Below, in pieces: positions 1,850-15,014 of a stretch of 15,014 nucleotides of DNA. The notes under the pieces are model-generated. The model ran no database searches. It was not told where the DNA came from and was given only the letters and a program-made list of their open reading frames with translations. Origin of the DNA: a virus; UHGV virus genome UHGV-0136760; one strand, given 5' to 3'. The stretch's first letter is position 1, and every line of letters begins with the position of its first letter. A program made the translations under genes and the position numbers.

Positions 1850-2490
1850 GCAACCGTTTTTACATGTTGTGCCTTCGTGAAACGGTCGGTAATAACGCCT
1901 CATTCCATTGCCACAACGGTTATGGGTACAGTTCGGATATTGACCGCGCACATGTTTATACACGGGAAGAAGCCCAGCAGGAGTGGGAACGAGGACGAGA
2001 CATTGATCAGCCTGTTTGCGCTGATAGCGTGGATGCAATGGCTGTGTGGCACGTTGATTGCCAGTACATCCCTACAGAAAGCCTGATTGAGTCAGATTGC
2101 ACTGCGTATGTGGCCTACAAAAAAGGTAGCTGGAACGGCAACGATGTTTACTGGCTTCAACACGGTGGATTGCCAACAGATGACTTCAGTAAAGCGACCA
2201 TCTTTAGCGTCGCCAACAAAAACGAACCAGGAATAGTTTGGTTGCCATTTTCCATTGCTGATGCAGCAAAGCGCCGGACGTTCAATATCAATAACTTTAA
2301 CCGCAGAACAATGGTTCAGGGCGCAGGTTTAGTGATGCCTGAGTGGTTAAAAAAACAGAACAGACGAAAGGAATCACGTAGCGGTAAGGTGCGCTGGAAC
2401 TGTCCGTATTGCGGAAAAATCACCTGGCAATACAGCCCATATGATTTTGAAGGATGTCGTGATTATAACTGCGAAGGGTGGATGCAATGA
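1846..2490 (+). CDS. hypothetical protein with C-terminal zinc-ribbon (CPYCG...C..C), paralog copy A
   Basis: 214-aa ORF translationally coupled to the DUF4406 gene. C-terminal CxxC...CxxC motif. Near-identical paralog at 4590..5234. Confidence 0.65.
2005..2273 (+). repeat. 269-bp segment identical to 4749..5017 (core of duplicated gene)
   Basis: By-eye comparison of the two paralog genes: this core appears base-for-base identical, while flanking parts of the same genes are clearly diverged. Confidence 0.75.
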
Positions 2491-3149
2491 CGAAATACTA
2501 CCAGCGAATCGACGGCACAGAATTTAGAAATGTATGGGTAGTAGGCGATCTGCATGGCTGCCACACGCTGTTAATGAATGAGCTGGACCGCGTTGGCTTT
2601 AACCCGGAATGTGATTTGCTCATCTCTGTGGGTGATCTTATTGATCGTGGTCCTGAGAACGTTGAGTGCCTGGAGCTTTTACAGATGCCCTGGTTCAGGG
2701 CAGTAATGGGAAACCATGAGGATTTAATGCTCGACGGTATATCGCCAACGGGGAGTGTAACGAACTGGTTGATAAATGGCGGCGGTTGGTTCTACTCGCT
2801 GGATACGGATAAAAAAGCACTTGCTATGTCGCTGGTGGAACGTGTCAGACAGTTACCGTACATCATAGAGTTGAAAACCACGTCAGAAACTATCGTGATC
2901 GCCCATGCTGATTATCCGGACGGAGAATATCAATTTGGGAAGCAGGTGCCTTTTTTCACTGTTATGTGGGGCAGGGAACGCATCAGTGAGTCTATAGACG
3001 GCATCGGTGGAGAAATAGCAGGTGCTGACAGATTCATCTTTGGTCACTCACCTGTAAACATGCCTAAAACCTTCTGGAATCAGCACTACATCGACACTGG
3101 TGCGGTGTATTGCGGAAAACTGACGCTAATGCAGGTCCAGGGGGTTTAA
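2487..3149 (+). CDS. Ser/Thr protein phosphatase, lambda NinI (lambda PPase)-like metallophosphatase
   Basis: PPP-family metallophosphatase motifs GDLHGC, GDLIDRG and GNHE, and a length (220 aa) matching lambda phosphatase. Start taken at the ATG at 2487, which overlaps the upstream stop (ATGA), rather than the track start at 2478. Confidence 0.85.
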
Positions 3150-3165
3150 CTTTTCATGTGCCGCG

Positions 3166-3188
3166 CCGGGGAATAGCCGTGTCCCCGG
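3166..3188 (+). other. GC-rich hairpin (CCGGGGA-N9-TCCCCGG) downstream of the phosphatase gene
   Basis: 7-bp inverted repeat directly after the stop at 3149. Not followed by a T-tract, so not a canonical intrinsic terminator. Confidence 0.25.
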
Positions 3189-3223
3189 TCCGAACTATAG
3201 ATACAAAGCGCACAAACATAAGT

Positions 3224-3251
3224 GTTAGAAACTTGATTTTAATTTTCTAAC
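3224..3251. promoter_or_regulatory. second 28-bp operator-like site (GTTAGAAA-N12-TTTCTAAC)
   Basis: Same 8-bp outer arms and same 28-bp length as the palindrome at 1331-1358. Lies about 45 bp upstream of the 3295 start and overlaps a TTGATT -35-like element. Confidence 0.45.
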
Positions 3252-3294
3252 AGATTATTTTACCACTCGGAACAAAACTGAGTCGGTATCTATT

Positions 3295-4290
3295 ATGAGT
3301 GCAATTATTACCCCCTATGTCTCGCAAGAGACTGGTGTTGCAGTCTTTAAGGTAGATAAGGCCACCAGCGGCTTTATCGGTTCCGGTAGACGCTTCATCA
3401 TTTCCCCGTTACCACGCGAACAAGCAGAAAACACTGCTGATGGTATCGTAGACCTTAACTATTCGCTGGTGGCTAATGAATCCTTATCACCATTCTTCAA
3501 TAGTGAGCGTGTCTTTACCGTTCTTGGAGGCGAGGGTTCTTTAGTGTCATGGGTAAGTCGCAATATCCATGAATGCCAGGCGCATGACAAAACACTATGT
3601 AGCAACAGGTTAACTACCCATTTCCATAATGGTTCAGCCGTGCGTTTATGCTGGGATCATGACGCTGAGTACATGATGAAAGGCTACGACAAGTTACGTG
3701 ACCAACTGGCGCTTAACCGGGCCAACTGGATTATGAACTGGGCGGCTAGTGAGTTAAAACTCCCTGCTGAACGTGACCTGAGCATGGTTGAGCTTGCGTT
3801 CTGGGCTATTCGTCGCGGCCTGAAAAATGAGTTACCGGAAGAAGCCGGGCGTATCGCTTTGTGTCTGCCAAAAGATGAAATCCCTACCGGACCGCTGAAA
3901 GAGTCCGATATCACCTGGCAAAACAGTACACGTGAAATTGTGAATTTAACCGCAGAGCAGATCGTAACTATTGCCGTTGATGAAGATTCCGGCCTGCTTT
4001 ATATGCGCCGACCAAAAGCGGTCCTCGGTAAAAGCCCGGCTTATCTCCGGTTTGTGGTTTCTCGTCCGTGCATCGGATGCGGTGGCAAAGTTAACCACCC
4101 GTTCATGTACCGCGCCCGCTCGTTAAACGAACACGACCGCTGGGCTGTTCCTCTTTGCGATGACTGCGCCAGAAGCGCAGAAAACGATGTTCGGACATGG
4201 GAAAAAGCACATGGCATACGCCTTTACGTAGCCGCTAACCAGCTTTTCGACTTCGCCATTGAGCGCGGAGTGATCACGTTCAATAACTGA
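3295..4290 (+). CDS. DUF968-like (YdfU-like) phage protein with C-terminal Cys-rich HNH-like motif
   Basis: 331-aa ORF. C-terminus CIGCGGKVNHP...NEHDRWAVPLCDDC resembles an HNH/zinc-binding motif. Family assignment from memory of the DUF968 architecture; unverified. Confidence 0.55.
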   Translation: MSAIITPYVSQETGVAVFKVDKATSGFIGSGRRFIISPLPREQAENTADGIVDLNYSLVANESLSPFFNSERVFTVLGGEGSLVSWVSRNIHECQAHDKTLCSNRLTTHFHNGSAVRLCWDHDAEYMMKGYDKLRDQLALNRANWIMNWAASELKLPAERDLSMVELAFWAIRRGLKNELPEEAGRIALCLPKDEIPTGPLKESDITWQNSTREIVNLTAEQIVTIAVDEDSGLLYMRRPKAVLGKSPAYLRFVVSRPCIGCGGKVNHPFMYRARSLNEHDRWAVPLCDDCARSAENDVRTWEKAHGIRLYVAANQLFDFAIERGVITFNN

Positions 4291-4303
4291 TGGAAACAAC
4301 GCA

Positions 4304-4597
4304 ATGAGTCAAGGTAACGGTGACGGAGCTGCAAAGTGCAGAATCTCCACTTGTTTGATTAATGACAGAAAAATAGAACCGTGCGCGGCGCTGGCACAAT
4401 CTCTGGAGCAGGATGCTGAATACACGACGCGAAAAGGTCTGCTGAAATACAAAATCTATAACCATGAATTAATTCATTCACAAGACCTGATCATGCTGCG
4501 GTCTGGTGAATTTTCTAAATCGCCTATTCGAGTTTCATTTTGCCCGTTCTGTGGTGAAAGTCTGAAAACGTGGGAAGCGGAGGCAACCAGTGAATAA
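4304..4597 (+). CDS. hypothetical small Cys-containing protein (97 aa)
   Basis: ORF with cysteine pairs (CRISTC ... CPFCG) suggesting a zinc ribbon. Its 3' end overlaps the start of paralog copy B by 8 nt. Confidence 0.5.
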   Translation: MSQGNGDGAAKCRISTCLINDRKIEPCAALAQSLEQDAEYTTRKGLLKYKIYNHELIHSQDLIMLRSGEFSKSPIRVSFCPFCGESLKTWEAEATSE

Positions 4598-5234
4598 CCG
4601 CTTTTACATGATGTGCTTGCGTGAAACTGTGGGTAATAACGCCTCATTCCATTGCCATAACGGCAATGGTTACAGTTCTGATATCGATCGCGCTCATGTT
4701 TACACGCTGGAAGAAGCCCAAAAAGCCTGGAATTGTGGACGAGATATCGATCAGCCTGTTTGCGCTGATAGCGTGGATGCAATGGCTGTGTGGCACGTTG
4801 ATTGCCAGTACATCCCTACAGAAAGCCTGATTGAGTCAGATTGCACTGCGTATGTGGCCTACAAAAAAGGTAGCTGGAACGGCAACGATGTTTACTGGCT
4901 TCAACACGGTGGATTGCCAACAGATGACTTCAGTAAAGCGACCATCTTTAGCGTCGCCAACAAAAACGAACCAGGAATAGTTTGGTTGCCATTTTCCATT
5001 GCTGATGCAGCAAAGCGTCGGACGTTCAATATCAATAACGTTAACCGCAGAACAATGGTTCAGGGCGCAGGTTTGGTCATGCCTGACTGGTTGAAAGAGC
5101 AGAACAGAAGAAAGAAGTCGCGAAGCGGGAAGGTGCGTTGGAATTGTCCGCATTGCGGAAAAATAACCTGGCAGTACAGCCCATATGATTTTGAAGGCTG
5201 TAGTGATTACAACTGTGAAGGATGGCGAGAATGA
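4590..5234 (+). CDS. hypothetical protein with C-terminal zinc-ribbon, paralog copy B (GTG start)
   Basis: 214-aa ORF, same length and same C-terminal CxxC...CxxC motif as 1846..2490. The central part is identical at the nucleotide level; the ends are diverged. Confidence 0.65.
   Translation: MNNRFYMMCLRETVGNNASFHCHNGNGYSSDIDRAHVYTLEEAQKAWNCGRDIDQPVCADSVDAMAVWHVDCQYIPTESLIESDCTAYVAYKKGSWNGNDVYWLQHGGLPTDDFSKATIFSVANKNEPGIVWLPFSIADAAKRRTFNINNVNRRTMVQGAGLVMPDWLKEQNRRKKSRSGKVRWNCPHCGKITWQYSPYDFEGCSDYNCEGWRE
4749..5017 (+). repeat. 269-bp segment identical to 2005..2273
   Basis: See paired repeat feature; offset between copies is 2744 bp. Confidence 0.75.
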
Positions 5235-5839
5235 CAATTGACTATCAGGCACTGCGAGATGCGGCAGAACGTGCAATTCCAGCAATGGAACGCCTGTTAA
5301 TGTTGCCAGTTGATGATGATTTGTTAAGTGAACAGGAACTTAAAGATTACGGTGTGGATATTGATGCGCTCAACGCCTTCAAATTTCTGACCGGACCAGA
5401 AACCGTGCTGGCACTACTGGATGAGATCAACGCATTAGAGGAAGCGCGTATCAACGATGTTTGCCGTATTGCGGAACTAACAAAACAACTGGAGTTGGCA
5501 AAATCAAAACTCAACGAGCAGCGTGAGTATTACGAAGGTGTTATCTCGGATGGAAGTAAGCGCATAGCAGAACTGGAAGCGCGGGGAATAAAACCAGCCA
5601 AAGGTGAAGTTCTGGTCGTTGTATCTGGTTTTACTGGTTGCGGAAAAAGCGCCATTGCCGGGGAAATAGAAATCGCGATGAAGGCTATTGGTGTACCGGT
5701 TCAGTGGACTAATGGCGATGCGGAAAAGCGCATGACAGGAGCTGACTGGCTGACAGCGATTGAGATGTACAAACCAACAGTGCGCATCGTGGAAGTTAAT
5801 GTGCCACGCGCCGCTGGCATTCGCATCAAAGGAGAGTGA
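5231..5839 (+). CDS. Ead/Ea22-like protein with P-loop-like motif
   Basis: N-terminus MTIDYQALRDAAERA is typical of the Ead/Ea22-like family of lambdoid early-left accessory proteins. Contains GFTGCGKS, a Walker A-like motif. Start taken at the ATG at 5231, overlapping the upstream stop (ATGA). Confidence 0.6.
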   Translation: MTIDYQALRDAAERAIPAMERLLMLPVDDDLLSEQELKDYGVDIDALNAFKFLTGPETVLALLDEINALEEARINDVCRIAELTKQLELAKSKLNEQREYYEGVISDGSKRIAELEARGIKPAKGEVLVVVSGFTGCGKSAIAGEIEIAMKAIGVPVQWTNGDAEKRMTGADWLTAIEMYKPTVRIVEVNVPRAAGIRIKGE

Positions 5840-5840
5840 G

Positions 5841-6596
5841 ATGATTCACTACCACGGTGGGCCTATTACTCCTGATACGTGCGCAATGAGAGCATGGAAA
5901 GGGCGACATGCGTTTATCAGTTTTGCGCATTCAGGCCAGATCAATCTCGCGGCTGAATACTGTCAGTCGTTCGCGCTGGACAACGGTGCATTCACCGCCT
6001 GGAAAGCAGCTGGCAAAAACAAAATCGACTGGAGCGATTACTACGAGTTTGTTGCTCGCTGGAAGAATCACCCAGGATTCGATTTTGCCATTATCCCGGA
6101 TGTTATTGATGGCGGAGAGGAGGAAAATGATGCGCTTCTGAATGAGTGGCCTCACGGAAAACTAGCTGGCGTTCCAGTGTGGCACATGAATGAAAGTGAC
6201 GAGCGATTTATTCATTTGTGCAATGAGTTTCCGCGAGTGGCTATCGGTAGTTGTGGCGACTATGACGTAAAGCGCCCAACTCTTGCGGTAGCCAGAATGA
6301 AAGACCTGATTCGTCACATTGTTGATGAGTATGGTCAGCCGGTTACGAAACTACATGGGTTGCGCATGTTAAATCCGCTGATATTCACAAAATTACCCTT
6401 AGCCAGCGCAGATAGTACGAACGTCGCTCGAAACATCGGTATTGATAAAGCCTGGTCTGGGGCTTATGCACCTGCAAGTAAAGAGACACGCGCAGCATTA
6501 ATGGTAGAACGGATTGAGGCACACAATAGCCCTGGTTCTCTTGCGTATTGTGAACAACGCGACCGCTTTGAAATGCAATTGCAACTGGCAGTTTAA
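5841..6596 (+). CDS. TGT-like (tRNA-guanine transglycosylase fold) protein, candidate DpdA-like DNA 7-deazaguanine transglycosylase
   Basis: ATG at 5841 with an AAAGGAGAG Shine-Dalgarno. Three motifs in TGT order: LDNGAF (compare TDSGGFQ), VAIGSCGD (compare AVGGLAVGE) and ADSTNVARNIG (compare DCVMPTRNARNG). The protein is shorter (251 aa) than bacterial Tgt. Confidence 0.5.
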   Translation: MIHYHGGPITPDTCAMRAWKGRHAFISFAHSGQINLAAEYCQSFALDNGAFTAWKAAGKNKIDWSDYYEFVARWKNHPGFDFAIIPDVIDGGEEENDALLNEWPHGKLAGVPVWHMNESDERFIHLCNEFPRVAIGSCGDYDVKRPTLAVARMKDLIRHIVDEYGQPVTKLHGLRMLNPLIFTKLPLASADSTNVARNIGIDKAWSGAYAPASKETRAALMVERIEAHNSPGSLAYCEQRDRFEMQLQLAV

Positions 6597-6606
6597 GGAC
6601 TAACAC

Positions 6607-7029
6607 ATGACCACTATTACCAAAGAACGTGCGGAGATTAAATCATTCATCACAGGCTTCCTGAGCGACCCGGCGCACGATAACCAATCTTCAGACAGCC
6701 TGCTTGCCAATGTGTTTCGTATCGCGCTGGCATCGCTGGAAGCAGAGGCTATTGGTGAAGTTTCAGAGCAGCGACATGGCCTTGTTATGGATGGAACGGT
6801 ATATCTTGGTGAGAAATCAACTTATCGCATCATTAAGGGAGAAAAAGCGATGAAGTTGTTGCCGCTGGGGACGAAGTTTTATACCGCACCGCCAGTGCCT
6901 GTAGTGCCGGAAGAAAAACCAATGCCTAACCCTCTTAGCATGTACGCGGTTGATGCTGTTGCCGCTATTGCAGAGGTGAGAGGCTGGAATGCCTGCCGTG
7001 CTGCCATGCTTAAGGGGAAAGGAGAGTGA
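6607..7029 (+). CDS. hypothetical protein (140 aa)
   Basis: ORF with AAGGACTAA Shine-Dalgarno. Shares the N-terminal MTTIT start with the next gene. No recognised domain. Confidence 0.55.
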   Translation: MTTITKERAEIKSFITGFLSDPAHDNQSSDSLLANVFRIALASLEAEAIGEVSEQRHGLVMDGTVYLGEKSTYRIIKGEKAMKLLPLGTKFYTAPPVPVVPEEKPMPNPLSMYAVDAVAAIAEVRGWNACRAAMLKGKGE

Positions 7030-7030
7030 T

Positions 7031-7579
7031 ATGACCACTATTACCAATAAGAAACAGTATCCCAGCGAGCAATATCTTAATGAGCTGATCACCAACATAG
7101 AGTTTGCTGCAAGGGCACCAGTTGAAGTCGTGAGAGCGATGGCAGCAGAGCTACAGAAGCGGCGCGAAGCTGATAGTGCAGAACCTGTAAGCCAAACTTA
7201 CAAGTTGCCAGTTAATACACCTTGCCAAGATGCGCCAGCCCATATCTGGCTGCAAACGGCTGGAGTATGGCCAGAAGATGGCGAGTTAAGCGAATTAACG
7301 TGGTGCAGCCACAATCAGCACCATGATGACACGCTATATGTTCGAGCTGACCTTGTGAATGGCAACTATCCGGTAACTCCGGATGGTTGGATAAGCTGTA
7401 GTGAGCGAATGCCCCCTCAAGATGATTGGATTTTAATTTATTCAAAGCACGGCGAGTATATGGCAGGACAGGTACAAGGGGAATACGTGGAGTTGAGCGA
7501 CGGCACTTTATCGTGGTTAGGGAACGCCTTGTACTGGATGCCACTACCAGAGCCGCCGCAGGAGGTTAACCGTGGCTAA
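7031..7579 (+). CDS. hypothetical protein with C-terminal DUF551-like domain
   Basis: ATG at 7031 with a GGAGAG Shine-Dalgarno. C-terminal region GWISCSERMPP...WMPLPEPP matches the phage DUF551 signature. Confidence 0.55.
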   Translation: MTTITNKKQYPSEQYLNELITNIEFAARAPVEVVRAMAAELQKRREADSAEPVSQTYKLPVNTPCQDAPAHIWLQTAGVWPEDGELSELTWCSHNQHHDDTLYVRADLVNGNYPVTPDGWISCSERMPPQDDWILIYSKHGEYMAGQVQGEYVELSDGTLSWLGNALYWMPLPEPPQEVNRG

Positions 7580-7853
7580 CCTGCAACTTGCCGTCAAAGG
7601 TGAATACTTCGATGCCATGATTCGCGGAGAGAAAACGGAAGAGTATCGCTTGTGTAATGGCTACTGGAATAAGCGAATCATGTTCCGGGAATATGACCGC
7701 CTGATTATCACAAAGGGATATCCGAAGCGCGACGATTCCAGTCGCAGAATAGACGTCCCGTATAACGGATATGAAATCAAGACAATCACACATCCGCACT
7801 TCGGTGATAAACCGGTAAAGGTGTACGCGATAAAGGTGAATATCAATGGCTAA
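7572..7853 (+). CDS. ASCH/DUF3850-like small protein
   Basis: GTG start with a GGAGG Shine-Dalgarno. N-terminal LAVKGEYFDAMIRGEKTEEYR resembles the ASCH-domain beta-barrel motif. Overlaps its neighbours at both ends. Confidence 0.5.
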   Translation: MANLQLAVKGEYFDAMIRGEKTEEYRLCNGYWNKRIMFREYDRLIITKGYPKRDDSSRRIDVPYNGYEIKTITHPHFGDKPVKVYAIKVNING

Positions 7854-10447: not shown

Positions 10448-10699
10448 GTGTCAGATCGAAATATAGCAGCTAAAAGCCAGGAAGAGCGAGACAAGGTGAA
10501 CGTAGACCTTGCCGCCAGCGGCGTTGCTTACAAAGAACGGCTGAATATACCTGTGATTGCAGAGCAGGTGGCCCGTGAGCAACCGGAAAACCTGCGCGCC
10601 TATTTCATGGAACGGCTACGGCACTACCGGAAGTTAAGCCTCCAGTTGCCAAAAGGGAGCGATCCGGTGTATCAGAACGAGGATGCACCAAAAAAATAA
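10448..10699 (+). CDS. hypothetical protein (83 aa), GTG start
   Basis: Strong AGGAGG Shine-Dalgarno about 7 nt upstream of the GTG. No recognised domain. Confidence 0.55.
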
Positions 10700-10822: not shown

Positions 10823-11212
10823 ATGGGCTTCCCTTCTCCTGCGGCGGATTATGCAGAGAGCCGCATTTCTCTTGATCAGCAACTAATCAGACATCCTTCC
10901 GCGACCTACTTCATGCGGGCGGCAGACAGCCATCACCGTGAGGGAATATTGCAAGGTGCTTTGCTGGTGGTTGATTCCTCACTTACTCCGGTTGATGGTT
11001 CACTGCTTATATGCGCTATGGAGGGTGAATATCGCATAAAGAGATACAGGAAGTATCCGCGCCAGCACCTGGAGGATTTAAGCACCGGGAAGAAAGAGGC
11101 GTTACCAGTAGATGACGATGGATGCACGGGCAGTAATGCTGTGTTTGGTGTGATCACTCATGTCATTAATGATGCCCGAAGTGGGGAGTTTGATTATAGA
11201 CCTGTGATTTAA
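10823..11212 (+). CDS. UmuD'-like protein (S24 LexA/UmuD peptidase fold lacking the N-terminal arm; P1 HumD-like)
   Basis: Starts MGFPSPAADYAE, i.e. at the position corresponding to the UmuD to UmuD' cleavage site. Colinear with E. coli UmuD' through to FGVITHVI. GAGGTAAAA Shine-Dalgarno. Confidence 0.8.
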   Translation: MGFPSPAADYAESRISLDQQLIRHPSATYFMRAADSHHREGILQGALLVVDSSLTPVDGSLLICAMEGEYRIKRYRKYPRQHLEDLSTGKKEALPVDDDGCTGSNAVFGVITHVINDARSGEFDYRPVI

Positions 11213-11223
11213 GGCGCATAAAG

Positions 11224-11252
11224 AAGCCCGCCAGACCTGGCGGGCTTTTTGT
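11224..11252 (+). terminator. Rho-independent terminator (10-bp GC-rich stem, GACC loop, T5 run), probably bidirectional
   Basis: AAGCCCGCCA-GACC-TGGCGGGCTT followed by TTTTT, placed between the convergent stops at 11212 and 11258. The reverse strand has a T-rich tail after the same hairpin. Confidence 0.75.
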
Positions 11253-11257
11253 TGATA

Positions 11258-12352
11258 TCATTCAATGATTTTTTCGGCTGTCAGCCAGCTAATTTCGTGC
11301 CTGTCTTTCGGCGGTTTTAGCATGTGAGCATATTCAGCGACATGCTCCCACGGAATTGTTTTTGCCCACTCAACGATAGCATTGTGATCTGCAGTGAAGA
11401 GTGGAATAGTGTGCGATTTCAACCATTCTAATGTCGTGACGCCATGTTTTTTGGCGTGGTGCTGCGCATGATGCCGGGCTATCACTCGTAATGGCATTGT
11501 CCATTCACTACCATCAGGCATCGAAAAGCGCATTGTCTTCGGCATATCTGATTCAAGAACAGCCTCCCTAATACCAGGGAACTCACCAAGAATCATACGA
11601 CGATAGTCATCACTATTTCGCCCGCCATACCTTTCGGCAAAATGATCAAGATATTCTTGGGTAATAAATGGTGAATCCTCCGCACTCAGCTTAATGGCTT
11701 TATATACACCACTCGGATTATCTTCAGCTAAAGCACGTCCATGATGTGAATCATAAAAAAAGCCTATTTCCTCTGGTGACGGAATTGAAGTGAGCAATAT
11801 GCGTGAATCACCACTAGTCATGCTTGCCCACACAATGCTGTATGCCCGATCGCTGATATGTGCGGAATCCACAATAATGAATAAAAGATGGTCGGCGTAG
11901 TGACCTGCAATGCTATCTTCATAGTTAAGGCGGTAGTTACAAAAGCACATTCCCCAAAATTCATTGAACATCAGACCGCTATCACCGACCTTAAAATACT
12001 CAATGATAAAAGGTTGTTTTTTCAGCAATGCCTCCCAACATTGCCACACATATGCAACAATTCCTCTTTTGCAAACATTTGATTTTGGATAAACAATTAC
12101 TGTCCGGGAATCAGGATACATAATCGTATAAAGGGTACTAATAACAGCAAGCACTTGCGGTCGTCCGATCCCATACGGAGTGGTGACAGTAGCTTTTGCA
12201 TTATTGGGCTGTATAGCTTCAACAATTTGTTGTTGCTGGTGGCTTAAATCAATATCAAACAATTCTTTTGCTGCCAGTACCCAATTGTCTTTATATTTCT
12301 CCACCAGCGACAGCCAGCGCGGATCTTTATAAATATTGCTCTTAGTCGCCAT
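11258..12352 (-). CDS. terminase large subunit-like ATPase-domain protein (no nuclease domain)
   Basis: Start taken at the internal ATG at 12352 (MATKSNIYK...), which has an AAGGAAG Shine-Dalgarno and overlaps the upstream stop. Terminase-like motif order: P-loop-like GIGRPQ, Walker B-like LLFIIVDSAH, motif III-like LLTSIPSPEE, then YRRMILGEF. Only 364 aa. Confidence 0.5.
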   Translation of the reverse strand: MATKSNIYKDPRWLSLVEKYKDNWVLAAKELFDIDLSHQQQQIVEAIQPNNAKATVTTPYGIGRPQVLAVISTLYTIMYPDSRTVIVYPKSNVCKRGIVAYVWQCWEALLKKQPFIIEYFKVGDSGLMFNEFWGMCFCNYRLNYEDSIAGHYADHLLFIIVDSAHISDRAYSIVWASMTSGDSRILLTSIPSPEEIGFFYDSHHGRALAEDNPSGVYKAIKLSAEDSPFITQEYLDHFAERYGGRNSDDYRRMILGEFPGIREAVLESDMPKTMRFSMPDGSEWTMPLRVIARHHAQHHAKKHGVTTLEWLKSHTIPLFTADHNAIVEWAKTIPWEHVAEYAHMLKPPKDRHEISWLTAEKIIE

Positions 12353-13109
12353 CTGCCACTTCCTTAACTTCTTCTTTGGCCTGTTCTGCAATCGCCGCAC
12401 GGCATTTCGCCCTGGCTGTAGCGATTGCTTCAGCTCGCACATCGTCTGGAATCGTTGACGTGATATACATATCCAGTTCTTCGGCACGGAATACTGTTTG
12501 GTCCAGATATTCGCGTAGCATCCAGGTAAATTCGAAATCACACGCGATAATCTCTGCGCTACCTTCTGCACCATTTGGGAAATGAATAAATGCCTGTTTA
12601 GCCAAACCGATAACACGACATGCGGTTGCCAAAACAGCGACAACCAGGTTTACATTTTCACACGCTACGGGCTGATTAACGCCGGAGATTACTCCATTTA
12701 ACTGTCGGTTATATGGAAGGTAGTTTGAGATGCGTTCTACGCGCCATGTGCCAGTCAGGCTGCCATTTTTAAAGATAATTGGTGTAACGGATAGCCCAAG
12801 CTCGCGTATAAGTCGTTGCGCTATAGCAGGATCATTAAACAGGTCTAATGCTACACATTCGAAAGACTGCGCAAGGGCAAACAGTTCTTCCAGAGAGTAG
12901 TCTTTGCCCCTGGCGGTGATGTAACGACGAACGCCGCTGTCTGCATCACTCCATATAGCTACGCCATGCTCTTCATTCAGCTCTTCATTAAAGCCGAGAT
13001 ACGTCATGATAGTGCGTTCAATCGTGTCAAACGGCAGTGACATGTCGGCGTTAACAGCCACCAGCAGGCCATTACGCAAGCGGTATTGAATTGTTTTAGT
13101 GCTTTCCAT
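12342..13109 (-). CDS. hypothetical protein (255 aa)
   Basis: ORF with a GGAG Shine-Dalgarno. Acidic Ala-rich C-terminal tail. No recognised domain. Confidence 0.55.
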   Translation of the reverse strand: MESTKTIQYRLRNGLLVAVNADMSLPFDTIERTIMTYLGFNEELNEEHGVAIWSDADSGVRRYITARGKDYSLEELFALAQSFECVALDLFNDPAIAQRLIRELGLSVTPIIFKNGSLTGTWRVERISNYLPYNRQLNGVISGVNQPVACENVNLVVAVLATACRVIGLAKQAFIHFPNGAEGSAEIIACDFEFTWMLREYLDQTVFRAEELDMYITSTIPDDVRAEAIATARAKCRAAIAEQAKEEVKEVADGD

Positions 13110-13115
13110 GTCAAA

Positions 13116-13778
13116 TCACTCCACAACAAACCAGTCACAGGCCAGCAGGTCGCCAACTGAAGGCACCCACGGAACAACTACACCTTGTGCATTTTTTAAG
13201 GCGAAATAAGCACCATACGGAACGAGGTCGCCGGGGAAATATCCCTTAATGGCTTCCATTCGTGCCGGGTGCTGTCCTTCAGGAACCAGCCAGCAGAATT
13301 GGTCTTCGCCGTTCCACCCGCGTCGAGCAACTTTCTTGCCATCCTTCATCCACATCAGCGCGTCAGAAAAGTCGGCTGCTTCAAGGTCGATTTCTTCTTG
13401 TAGAGTAGCGATACCGCCAGCAGAAATAGTTACGTCCCTGGCTGTAATGAATGTCACCCCATTGTGACCTTCAATGCTGAGCGATACCCCATTTTCGGAG
13501 GCGTCGTTAACCCGGCTATAGCATTTTTCAAATGCTTTCTCTGGCACATAGACCAGATAACCATTTTCAGCAGTGACGAGATATCCTCCTATTTGCGGTC
13601 GGAACTTTTCCAAGAACACACCATCAACACGAAGCGTCATTCCTTTTGGCTCCACGACTTCGATGCTGCCAAAAATGGGCGCATAAGCTTTGCCGACAAT
13701 AACAATATCTTTGATTTTCGATGCCCGAATGATGCTGTGGCATTTGTATTTGGGGAACACCTGAAAAGTGCTGGCCAT
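13116..13778 (-). CDS. two-domain protein with C-terminal DUF2829 (Tad2-like) domain
   Basis: C-terminal ~90 aa (FSDALMWMKDGKKVARRGWNGEDQFCWLVPEG ... VVPWVPSVGDLLACDWFVVE) matches the DUF2829 signature. The N-terminal ~125 aa is an unrelated domain. GAGGAAGG Shine-Dalgarno. Confidence 0.6.
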   Translation of the reverse strand: MASTFQVFPKYKCHSIIRASKIKDIVIVGKAYAPIFGSIEVVEPKGMTLRVDGVFLEKFRPQIGGYLVTAENGYLVYVPEKAFEKCYSRVNDASENGVSLSIEGHNGVTFITARDVTISAGGIATLQEEIDLEAADFSDALMWMKDGKKVARRGWNGEDQFCWLVPEGQHPARMEAIKGYFPGDLVPYGAYFALKNAQGVVVPWVPSVGDLLACDWFVVE

Positions 13779-13792
13779 AATCCTTCCTCTAC

Positions 13793-14287
13793 TTAAAACT
13801 TTGCGTACTGAAGCGGTGTACGCTTGATTTCAACGCGGCCTTCCGATGTGCTACCAAAGCCACCAGCACCACGCTCCGTTTCGTTGAGTTCCTCAACCTC
13901 GACTAGTGAGACTTGTTCAACACGCTCAAAAATACCTTGCATGACAGCCATTCCAGGCTTGAGACAAACGCCTTCCCCGCCGGGATCAGTAATCAGTTTT
14001 GCCATGATTTCGCCGCGATAATCGGAGTCGATAATTCCTACGCAGTTAGCCAGGCGAGTATGTTTTTTGCAGCCCAATCCGGATCGCGGATAGAGTTTCA
14101 GACACCAGCCGGGCGGGATCTCCATAGCCAGTCCGGTATACACCCACCAGCTTGAGGAAATTGCACCATTGCTATCGACGCATGGTGTTATTTCAACAGC
14201 CTCAAAATCCATTGCTGCCGATCCTGCGGTGGCATAGAACGGCAGTTTTGCACCAGGATGCAGGCGCTTCACTTTTACGTTAATCAT
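13793..14287 (-). CDS. dut: dUTP diphosphatase (trimeric dUTPase)
   Basis: Start taken at the internal ATG at 14287 (MINVKVKRL...). All recognisable dUTPase motifs present: YATAGSAAMDF, PRSGLG, GIIDSDYRGE and RGAGGFGSTS. Overlaps the upstream gene by 8 nt. Confidence 0.85.
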   Translation of the reverse strand: MINVKVKRLHPGAKLPFYATAGSAAMDFEAVEITPCVDSNGAISSSWWVYTGLAMEIPPGWCLKLYPRSGLGCKKHTRLANCVGIIDSDYRGEIMAKLITDPGGEGVCLKPGMAVMQGIFERVEQVSLVEVEELNETERGAGGFGSTSEGRVEIKRTPLQYAKF

Positions 14288-14771
14288 GCTTCTTTGCTCT
14301 TTTGGTGAAGGTGTAAATTCGACGTTTAATATGCGGGGCAGTCGGTACGGATACGTTTGTGGATTCGATAATGCCTTGCTCTTCAAGAGAGCGAACGGCA
14401 CGCAGGAACTGAGACGCATCGCCGCCACCGGACAGCCAGAATTTACGGGCGTAAATGCTGCCGTTACGGATAATTTCAGCAACGACACGAGACTGGGTTT
14501 GTGTTTCACGATAGGCAAACAGTTGCCGGGCTTCTTCCGGCGTAATAGCCAGTTGATAGCCTTTCCCCTTATGGGCGCGAAGAAAACCAAACGACACCAG
14601 GTGTTTTAGTTCCCTGCGCGTAGTCTCATAACCGTATTCCTGTATCTGGAGATTGAGATCGGCGGGCTTTAGCCATGCTTCCGGCGACTCAGTAAGAAGC
14701 GCCAGCAACTTACCGGATAGCTCAGGGGAGGAAGACGGGTAACAGTTAAGAGATGGGTAATAGTGTTTCAT
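14280..14771 (-). CDS. hypothetical protein with winged-helix-like segments (163 aa)
   Basis: ORF translationally coupled at both ends (ATGA overlap upstream, 8-nt overlap with dut). Helix-turn-helix-like stretches (LKHLVSFGFLRAHKGKGYQL; FLRAVRSLEEQGIIES). Confidence 0.55.
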   Translation of the reverse strand: MKHYYPSLNCYPSSSPELSGKLLALLTESPEAWLKPADLNLQIQEYGYETTRRELKHLVSFGFLRAHKGKGYQLAITPEEARQLFAYRETQTQSRVVAEIIRNGSIYARKFWLSGGGDASQFLRAVRSLEEQGIIESTNVSVPTAPHIKRRIYTFTKRAKKHD

Positions 14772-15007
14772 TTGCGCCCCCTTACTGGATAATGAGAGCG
14801 GGCATCAACCGGAGCAATGAATCCGGTTGTAGGGCGGGAAAATACGAGATCAATCTTCTCGGTCATGGCGCGATAGTTTTCCTGATAGTGGGCCAGGAGT
14901 TTTTCAGCAGCAATGACGGTTACTCGCTGGACGTAGCTTTCAGCTTCGCCCAGGTTTGACCATTTCTTTTCGAGGGTAAGTACAGGTACGGTCTCAAGCC
15001 CTGTCAT
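14768..15007 (-). CDS. hypothetical small protein (79 aa or longer; may be 5'-truncated by the window edge)
   Basis: ORF whose stop overlaps the next start (ATGA). No in-frame stop between the ATG at 15007 and the window end, so the true start may lie outside the window. Confidence 0.4.
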   Translation of the reverse strand: MTGLETVPVLTLEKKWSNLGEAESYVQRVTVIAAEKLLAHYQENYRAMTEKIDLVFSRPTTGFIAPVDARSHYPVRGRK

Positions 15008-15014
15008 GATTCCG

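Follow-up and report, generated by a model that had tools for sequence, protein, structure and literature searches.

A stretch of 15,014 nucleotides from the virus genome UHGV-0136760 (the window, meaning here this whole stretch) carries at its right end six consecutive minus-strand open reading frames (ORFs), which occupy positions 11258-15014 and are called g1 to g6 in the order of their transcription. Sequence comparison identifies the window as part of an Escherichia coli D6-like, P1-family phage-plasmid, and the last of the six genes, g6, as one that encodes a diverged paralogue of the phage's own large-terminase (TerL) ATPase domain, PacB, with the marks of a pseudoenzyme and not of a pseudogene. 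The six genes are a variable accessory operon trailing a Cre-like recombinase gene. We consider it probable that the region is the distal part of a recombinase-proximal accessory operon, a mosaic 'slot' locus and not one machine, with candidate roles for a Tad2-family sponge and for the g6 product (pseudo-PacB). As a whole it is a phage accessory/anti-defence locus in a known phage-plasmid family, and the pseudo-terminase clade is its novel and unexpected part. P1-family phage-plasmids are common carriers of resistance genes in Enterobacteriaceae and workhorses of transduction and of Cre/Dre technology, and their recombinase-adjacent operon is annotated nearly throughout as 'hypothetical'. A reading made earlier from the sequence alone (the original prediction) had taken the six genes for a candidate anti-defence or hijacking module.

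A PacB paralogue with degenerate ATPase motifs

The g6 protein has 364 aa, of which the N-terminal ~260 aa are colinear with PacB (33-37% identical) and represent a TerL-type ASCE ATPase domain. This homology emerged from tblastn against phage genomes and from a full-library hidden Markov model (HMM) search; a sequence search with g6 against PDB gave no match, and a word-indexed homologue search gave 7 clusters only. The Walker A motif, GHGTGKS in PacB, reads PYGIGRP in g6 and has no catalytic Lys-Ser, and the Walker B motif, LILDEA in PacB, reads IIVDSA, with loss of the Walker B Asp. Similar losses were found in the relatives that form the dead clade, where the position of the Walker A lysine holds R, Q, H, E, M, C or T and, in most members, that of the Walker B Asp holds V, T, A, M, I, P or L; the divergent proteins P0053 and P0059 keep the Asp (DN) and have lost the Glu that follows it. 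The Q-motif (HQQ), the P-loop G-x-G, the S-x-P coupling motif and the FYDSHH, SAEDSP and YGGR blocks are kept in g6. The alignment with PacB ends at aa 259/264, and no RNase H-like nuclease domain is present. The original prediction had described a nuclease-less, TerL-like packaging ATPase. Its absence of a nuclease is borne out, since the PacB alignment stops before that domain, and so is the homology to TerL, but not the activity: the motifs for ATP binding and hydrolysis are gone, which makes the supposed packaging ATPase a pseudoenzyme.

A full-library profile search with g6 collected 1634 relatives, from which 23 full-length 'live' and 12 'dead' proteins were compared. The residues conserved in the live set only include the Walker A S-G-H-x-T-x-K-S, the Walker B D-E with its catalytic Glu, S164-G165, N183-R184, and the Q and T of the SQPT coupling motif (C-motif). 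Common to live and dead proteins are 31 scaffold positions, among them the QQ motif, G-x-G, S-x-P, G-x-FY-x-x-HH, E-x-SP, GG and G-x-F. Among the best 152 library representatives, K[ST] and DE are both intact in 124, whose median length is 486 aa, and another 19 have degenerate motifs. A nuclease-sized tail is missing from 15 of these 19: 12 are at most 277 aa long (two of them ~180-aa fragments), and three are 366 aa long with an alternative C-terminal domain. The short dead proteins, which come from other genera, are complete and end directly after the G-x-FP block that closes the ATPase domain. In a neighbour-joining tree the dead proteins form one cluster, with P0042 as the sole exception.

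The loss of all catalytic motifs together with the nuclease domain would also be expected if g6 were a functionless remnant, in decay, of a terminase gene once duplicated or captured, and g6 is indeed absent from D6, P1, SJ46 and other relatives that carry pacAB. However, the frame is intact at 364-366 codons in alleles that are 52-66% identical, and comparison with an allele of 97.5% protein identity gave a ratio of non-synonymous to synonymous substitution rates (dN/dS) of 0.09 (10 non-synonymous vs 26 synonymous differences). Furthermore, the 31 scaffold positions are still shared with live terminases, the dead proteins of other genera stop exactly at the domain boundary, and the form with a C-terminal domain occurs in 166 PLSDB plasmids (44 D6-type at >=95% identity and 114 P1-type at ~60%). 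Since both selection and conservation speak against decay, we regard a relic as very improbable. Purifying selection and intact diverged alleles mark g6 as a pseudoenzyme and set it apart from pseudogenes.

The C-terminal ~100 aa of g6 are, by sequence, a separate mobile module. They have no similarity to the C-terminus of PacB, match phrog_17928 only, and are nearly identical among alleles whose N-terminal domains are 64-66% identical, while the P0007 allele is without them. The same domain stands alone in Cronobacter phage JK004 (locus piece 4001-4297), two genes downstream of a DnaB-like helicase gene, and in Xanthomonas phage SAC it is found at the C-terminus of a DUF1351-like protein (locus piece 1882-3294) near recombinase, exonuclease and SSB genes.

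g6 itself follows isaA and is not adjacent to pacA/lpa. Its N-terminal domain is also met in other surroundings. Citrobacter plasmid NZ_CP114569 (locus piece 6336-7792) encodes a 263-aa Walker-dead PacB-N without the C-terminal domain. Its gene shares an overlap with the end of ref (recombination enhancement nuclease) and has mat downstream of it, which is a third genomic context of the dead PacB-N family. In an 86-kb IMG/VR contig, the most divergent dead TerL-N (P0053-like, 244 aa; 1229-1978) lies among MT-A70, C5 methyltransferase and VRR-NUC genes. A scan of viral contigs for the P0008 type gave no match.

A mosaic operon behind a recombinase gene

The window was assigned to a D6-like, P1-family phage-plasmid because of its matches to D6 and PLSDB entries and because of the neighbouring genes in annotated relatives. 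In megablast searches with 11200-15014 as the query, phage D6 matched along 61% of the query at 88% nucleotide identity. Matches were also obtained to 249 PLSDB plasmids of ~85-100 kb, mostly non-mobilizable plasmids from E. coli and Salmonella; in 42 of the 249 the match covers at least 80% of the query. In the annotated relatives, the region is bordered on one side by the convergent genes hot-humD and on the other by dre, the cre-like recombinase gene; farther out on the dre side come c1 and the genuine packaging genes lpa-pacA-pacB.

Six tightly packed leftward genes had been predicted, and both the junctions and the homologues found for all six genes in related phage-plasmids agree with this. 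g1 and g2 overlap by 4 nt (ATGA), g2 and g3 by 8 nt, and g5 and g6 by 11 nt; the spacer between g3 and g4 is 14 nt long with GAGGAAGGA inside, and that between g4 and g5 is 6 nt long. The strong terminator that the original prediction had placed against the convergent operon is real as a hairpin, judged from folding: it has a free energy of -20.6 kcal/mol (z = -3.16), and 2 of 200 shuffled sequences were equally stable. It is located in the 45-nt gap between the stop of g6 (11258) and the stop of humD (11212). Because T-runs flank it on both strands, the plus-strand run TTTTTGTTG being better than TCTTTAT on the minus strand, it is probably a bidirectional intrinsic terminator; a consensus terminator scan did not flag it. 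In some relatives, phd-doc is inserted between humD and the hairpin.

The operon is not complete in the window; in relatives it continues upstream to dre. Complete relatives have the dre/cre-like recombinase gene ~75-110 nt upstream of g1. Consensus scans of one relative detected no terminator-like site in the interval from the recombinase gene to g1 and placed the sole strong promoter-like site (TTGGCA-16-TATAAT) upstream of dre; for these two reasons the operon probably starts outside the window.

The composition of the locus varies among relatives (Table 1). D6-like plasmids of E. coli and Salmonella retain all six genes in the same order over diverged g6 alleles, whether or not phd-doc lies next to them. 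In the Enterobacter relatives, the dUTPase slot holds a gene for a 385-aa N6/N4 DNA methyltransferase, and a 169-aa HNH-like gene lies between the Tad2-like and IsaA genes (locus piece 3711-6004). Across the set, the C8-like gene, g2 and isaA are read from sequence as a conserved backbone, and the other positions as exchangeable cargo: one slot has a dUTPase or a DNA methyltransferase, and Tad2 and pseudo-PacB may each be there or missing. Exchange is also visible within the operon. The g1 and g2 products of the window have 73% and 67% protein identity, with saturated synonymous divergence, to those of plasmids in which g5 and g6 are 100% identical. As g1 and g2 have diverged while g5 and g6 are identical in the same plasmids, the sequences place a recombination breakpoint inside the operon at ~14287, the junction of g2 and the dUTPase gene.

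Table 1. Gene order of the locus in relatives of the window's phage-plasmid
Element	Gene order and cargo
D6	dre, g1, g2, dut, short DUF2829, isaA; without g6
Raoultella plasmid	recombinase, g1 (C8-like), g2, dUTPase, IsaA, arsenic-resistance (ars) cargo
Enterobacter plasmids	recombinase, g1 (C8-like), g2, N6/N4 DNA methyltransferase, Tad2-like, HNH-like, IsaA
Citrobacter plasmid	recombinase, C8-like, extra gene, g2-like, extra gene, IsaA-like; dead PacB-N elsewhere
IS1-free Punavirus genomes	ssb, isaA, g6-like
SJ46	ssb, Tad2-fusion, isaA
P1	ssb (with C1 operator), isaA, IS1, isaB

Phage D6 (AY753669, dre-orf2-orf3-dut; MF356679 / NC_050154, orf113-117) shares with the window the order from the recombinase gene through g1, g2, dut and the DUF2829 gene to the isaA-like gene. 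It differs in that phd-doc-pdcA abut isaA, with no pseudo-PacB gene, and between D6 and the window the g1 and g2 alleles share only 66-73% identity. In P1-like phages, the IsaA block follows ssb and not cre, and its operon is under the control of a C1 operator. IS1-free Punavirus genomes have isaA followed by an overlapping g6-like gene that is 52% identical to g6, while P1 itself has IS1 and the unrelated isaB where the g6-like gene would stand. The P1 arrangement isaA-IS1-isaB (NC_005856, 20500-25500) is atypical: in ~114 PLSDB plasmids, too, the gene after isaA is a g6-like one, and the canonical version is a disrupted form of the block that IS1-free relatives carry. P1 isaB was also considered as an IS1-truncated remnant of a g6-like gene; no similarity was found, and this origin was rejected.

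Proteins encoded upstream of the PacB paralogue

The g1 frame is open to base 15014 at the window end (Table 2), and its full-length homologues, alignable with g1, have 102-114 aa, so that the 79-aa small protein of the original prediction is a window-end artefact. Both g1 (E 8.8e-42) and P1 C8 (E 6.4e-53) match phrog_1968. Direct BLASTP between the two was weak (E 0.053) and improved to 2e-5 through a Citrobacter intermediate. Additionally, both genes occupy the same place, directly downstream of a cre-like recombinase gene. On this sequence evidence g1 is a member of the P1 C8 family, a putative lysogeny-establishment protein. From this membership, together with the place of the operon after the recombinase gene, part of the operon is read as ordinary phage-plasmid housekeeping or regulation.

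g2 matches phrog_6669 (E 2e-73) and is present in E. coli, Raoultella, Enterobacter and Citrobacter relatives, with a dN/dS of 0.08 against a diverged allele. Its domain matches were all below threshold (E 0.016-0.7) and all to winged-helix domains (EutK helix-turn-helix 0.016, PadR 0.058, Lrp 0.087, Rrf2 0.14, CodY and SlyA), and they fall in two regions, aa ~19-74 and ~80-150. The predicted winged helix-turn-helix protein is thus favoured by the uniform kind of the matches and weakened by the level of every one of them; a (double) winged-helix protein is plausible.

The dUTPase of the prediction, g3, proved correct, with scores above the cutoffs for Pfam PF00692 (E 3.7e-14; 53 bits vs 22) and for NCBIfam PRK00601 (120.3 bits vs 103) and TIGR00576 (117.4 bits vs 102.55). 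It aligns over its full length with solved dUTPases (E 6e-24), all five motifs are present, and the retained residues include AGSAAMD, PRSGL, GIIDSDYRGE, Q117 and RGAGGFGST. With a dN/dS of 0.11-0.24, g3 reads as an intact dUTPase with all catalytic motifs.

Similarly, the Tad2-like fusion of the prediction was recovered in g4. Its C-terminal domain matches Pfam PF11195 (E 2.7e-22; 79.5 bits vs cutoff 25) and MoTad2 (PDB 9eib/8v3e) with 43% identity over all 88 aa (E 8e-19); weaker alignments were obtained with AcrIIA7/HgmTad2 and with SPO1 Tad2 (Gp34.65). By these matches the domain is a member of the Tad2 family, with MoTad2, a sponge of His-ADPR and cUMP/cCMP, as the closest solved structure. 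MoTad2 sequesters the His-ADPR of type II Thoeris (10.1101/2024.01.03.573942) and also the cUMP/cCMP of Pycsar (PMC12393519). Family membership predicts that g4 is likely an immune-signal sponge. The characterised Tad2 proteins (SPO1 Tad2, MoTad2 and HgmTad2 = AcrIIA7) are single-domain proteins of about 90-105 aa; unlike them, the g4 domain makes up the C-terminal 89 aa of a 220-aa fusion. The N-terminal domain of g4 (~125-130 aa) gave a local profile match only, to the OB-fold of phage L Dec (PDB 6e3c, E 5.6e-4); its motif RPxIGGYL...G.L.Y.PEK.FE..Y (within 13400-13778, minus strand) belongs to the part that matches this region. The DUF2829 protein of D6 is 146 aa long, an internal deletion having removed most of the N-terminal domain. 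g4 is the fastest-evolving of the six genes (dN/dS 0.35-0.48).

g5 matches phrog_2326 (E 9.7e-134) and is 48% identical to P1 IsaA over 88% of its length. Profile searches of IsaA against PDB gave no match and no confident fold. P1 isaA is non-essential by CRISPR interference (PMC10695390). IsaA was also considered as a paralogue of PacA (the small terminase), which would make IsaA-g6 a duplicated pseudo-pacase; BLASTP showed no similarity and PDB profiles returned nothing, and the candidate was rejected at the sequence level.

Table 2. Positions of the genes, domains and terminator hairpin in the window
Feature	Position	Strand	Description	Basis
g1	14768..15014	-	P1 C8 homologue, 3' part, 81 codons; open frame to window end	phrog_1968
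g2	14280..14771	-	163 aa; conserved core gene, possible tandem winged-helix DNA-binding protein	phrog_6669
g3	13793..14287	-	trimeric dUTPase, 164 aa, with 16-aa C-terminal extension	Pfam, NCBIfam, solved dUTPases
g4	13116..13778	-	220-aa fusion; N-terminal domain (about aa 1-125) and Tad2-family C-terminal domain	phrog_872/11049/1048
g4, Tad2-like (DUF2829) domain	13119..13385	-	aa 132-220	PF11195; MoTad2 alignment
g5	12342..13109	-	IsaA family, 255 aa	phrog_2326
g6, N-terminal 262 aa	11567..12352	-	PacB/TerL ATPase-domain paralogue with degenerate Walker A/B
g6, C-terminal ~100 aa and stop	11258..11566	-	separate domain in place of TerL nuclease	phrog_17928
Terminator hairpin	11224-11247	.	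GC-rich, 10 bp, between convergent g6 and humD	fold and T-runs on both sides
humD	10823-11212	+	UmuD'-like S24 peptidase; converges on the operon, terminator hairpin common to both
hot	10448-10699	+	DNA polymerase III theta homologue; converges on the six-gene operon

Elsewhere in the window, a 300-nt direct repeat was observed at 1847-2146 and 4591-4890 (90% identity, 2744 nt apart). It marks a duplicated gene pair in the rightward accessory operon (1556-2490 and 4304-5234, plus strand; 97 aa and 214 aa), for which the annotation of relatives suggests an ead/Ea22-like nature.

With the identities of the six genes at hand, we asked how far they make up one dedicated cargo module, selected as a unit against host immunity or for hijacking or competing with other phages. 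A sponge of the Tad2 family is present, the genes are tightly coupled and share one terminator, and among D6-like plasmids of E. coli and Salmonella their order persists over several diverged alleles. The methyltransferase that replaces the dUTPase in relatives would fit such a module, and a nuclease-less TerL paralogue could interfere with packaging. However, sub-blocks of the operon are found independently and in a second context behind ssb, g1 is homologous to P1 C8, and the six genes form the tail of a recombinase operon. Furthermore, the dUTPase is of the ordinary, intact kind, neither a gene of satellite type nor a match to a defence system was seen, and the element has its own full terminase. 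A module of this kind is unlikely in our view.

The corresponding parts of the original prediction fared differently. That the gene order belongs to no standard structural, replication or lysis module was confirmed, the region being a variable accessory region of D6/P1-like phage-plasmids. Anti-defence cargo stands in so far as the Tad2 family and the methyltransferase in the dUTPase slot are concerned, and falls for one cohesive six-gene module. The prediction itself held that genes scattered in other contexts would speak against it, and such scattering is seen in part, with a Tad2-fusion/IsaA/TerL-like block behind ssb in P1-like phages. Hijacking is left without support, as no sign of a satellite was found and the element is a complete phage-plasmid with its own pacA-pacB.

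Possible roles and comparison with anti-defence loci

In the mosaic accessory operon that we favour, the full order would run from dre, outside the window, through the C8-like gene, the putative winged-helix gene, the dUTPase gene, the Tad2-fusion, isaA and pseudo-PacB to the bidirectional terminator held in common with hot-humD. Transcription of the operon may accompany that of the recombinase gene or follow it directly, early in infection and/or in the lysogenic state. Immune signals of the TIR or Pycsar type would be soaked up by the Tad2 domain, and the slot for the dUTPase (or methyltransferase) would protect or condition incoming and replicating DNA. Pseudo-PacB would act via binding and not via catalysis. 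Most likely it would occupy a partner of PacB, namely PacA, pac DNA or the motor ring, and the pac cleavage and packaging of related P1-family elements would be modulated or poisoned by this occupation, possibly together with IsaA, its translationally coupled neighbour. Competition for a PacB partner is favoured because the catalytic residues have been selectively lost while the fold core and the non-catalytic motifs are kept, and because g6 is accessory and co-resident P1- and D6-type elements compete.

Several points weigh against this picture. Co-transcription with dre is based on consensus scans of one relative only, and the AlphaFold2 model of g6 is poor (predicted local distance difference test score, pLDDT, 57). 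No match at E <= 0.1 was found in PADLOC-DB for any of the six proteins, and g6 as a component of a defence system was rejected on the same search. The neighbours of pseudo-PacB elsewhere (ssb, ref, DnaB-like helicase, recombinases and methyltransferases) point equally to replication or recombination. IsaA and pseudo-PacB might accordingly be accessory replication/recombination factors of the phage's own, for example coupling replication intermediates to maturation or protecting ends; with ssb, ref, helicase and recombinase genes as the kind of neighbours that such factors would have, we nevertheless judge this role improbable.

Beyond this locus, the Walker-dead, nuclease-less PacB/TerL-N clade could represent an undescribed group of terminase-derived pseudoenzymes that phage-plasmids use as conflict weapons. 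Their binding target, with or without IsaA, would be either a partner of the terminase (PacA, pac DNA or the motor ring) or an immune receptor that senses TerL. We offer this proposal tentatively and rate its chance of being right as rather low. If true, the packaging of competing P1-family elements would be poisoned, or host surveillance of the terminase would be blinded. To our knowledge, terminase-derived pseudoenzymes are not a described category, and literature searches in a limited library gave nothing relevant on terminase decoys, dominant-negative terminases or PacB paralogues. For the receptor, pseudo-PacB would be a decoy for the large-terminase-sensing immune receptors of the Avs1-3 class, binding the sensor without activation. 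Recognition in the Avs3-TerL structure reportedly involves the nucleotide-bound ATPase site and the nuclease site, both of which g6 is without, and literature searches gave no support, so that we hold a decoy of this kind to be distinctly improbable.

The competition reading, by which pseudo-PacB occupies a partner of PacB, would have wider consequences. A dead copy of a packaging ATPase is conserved in about 166 sequenced plasmids and in related clades, and if it modulates or sabotages packaging, it would offer a new point of control over generalised transduction and over the competition of co-resident phage-plasmids. The likely immune-signal sponge in a slot locus also provides concrete candidates for anti-defence screens in E. 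coli.

Clustered anti-defence loci (acr/aca-type islands and early accessory regions) resemble the locus in their tightly packed, variable small genes with exchangeable cargo, and the operon has, as they do, one known anti-defence family, a DNA-modification alternative and a putative helix-turn-helix protein. It differs from them in that a validated anti-defence family accounts for one of the six genes only, in that a conserved backbone of the C8-like gene, g2 and isaA runs through it, and in that it is tied to a plasmid-resolution recombinase gene.

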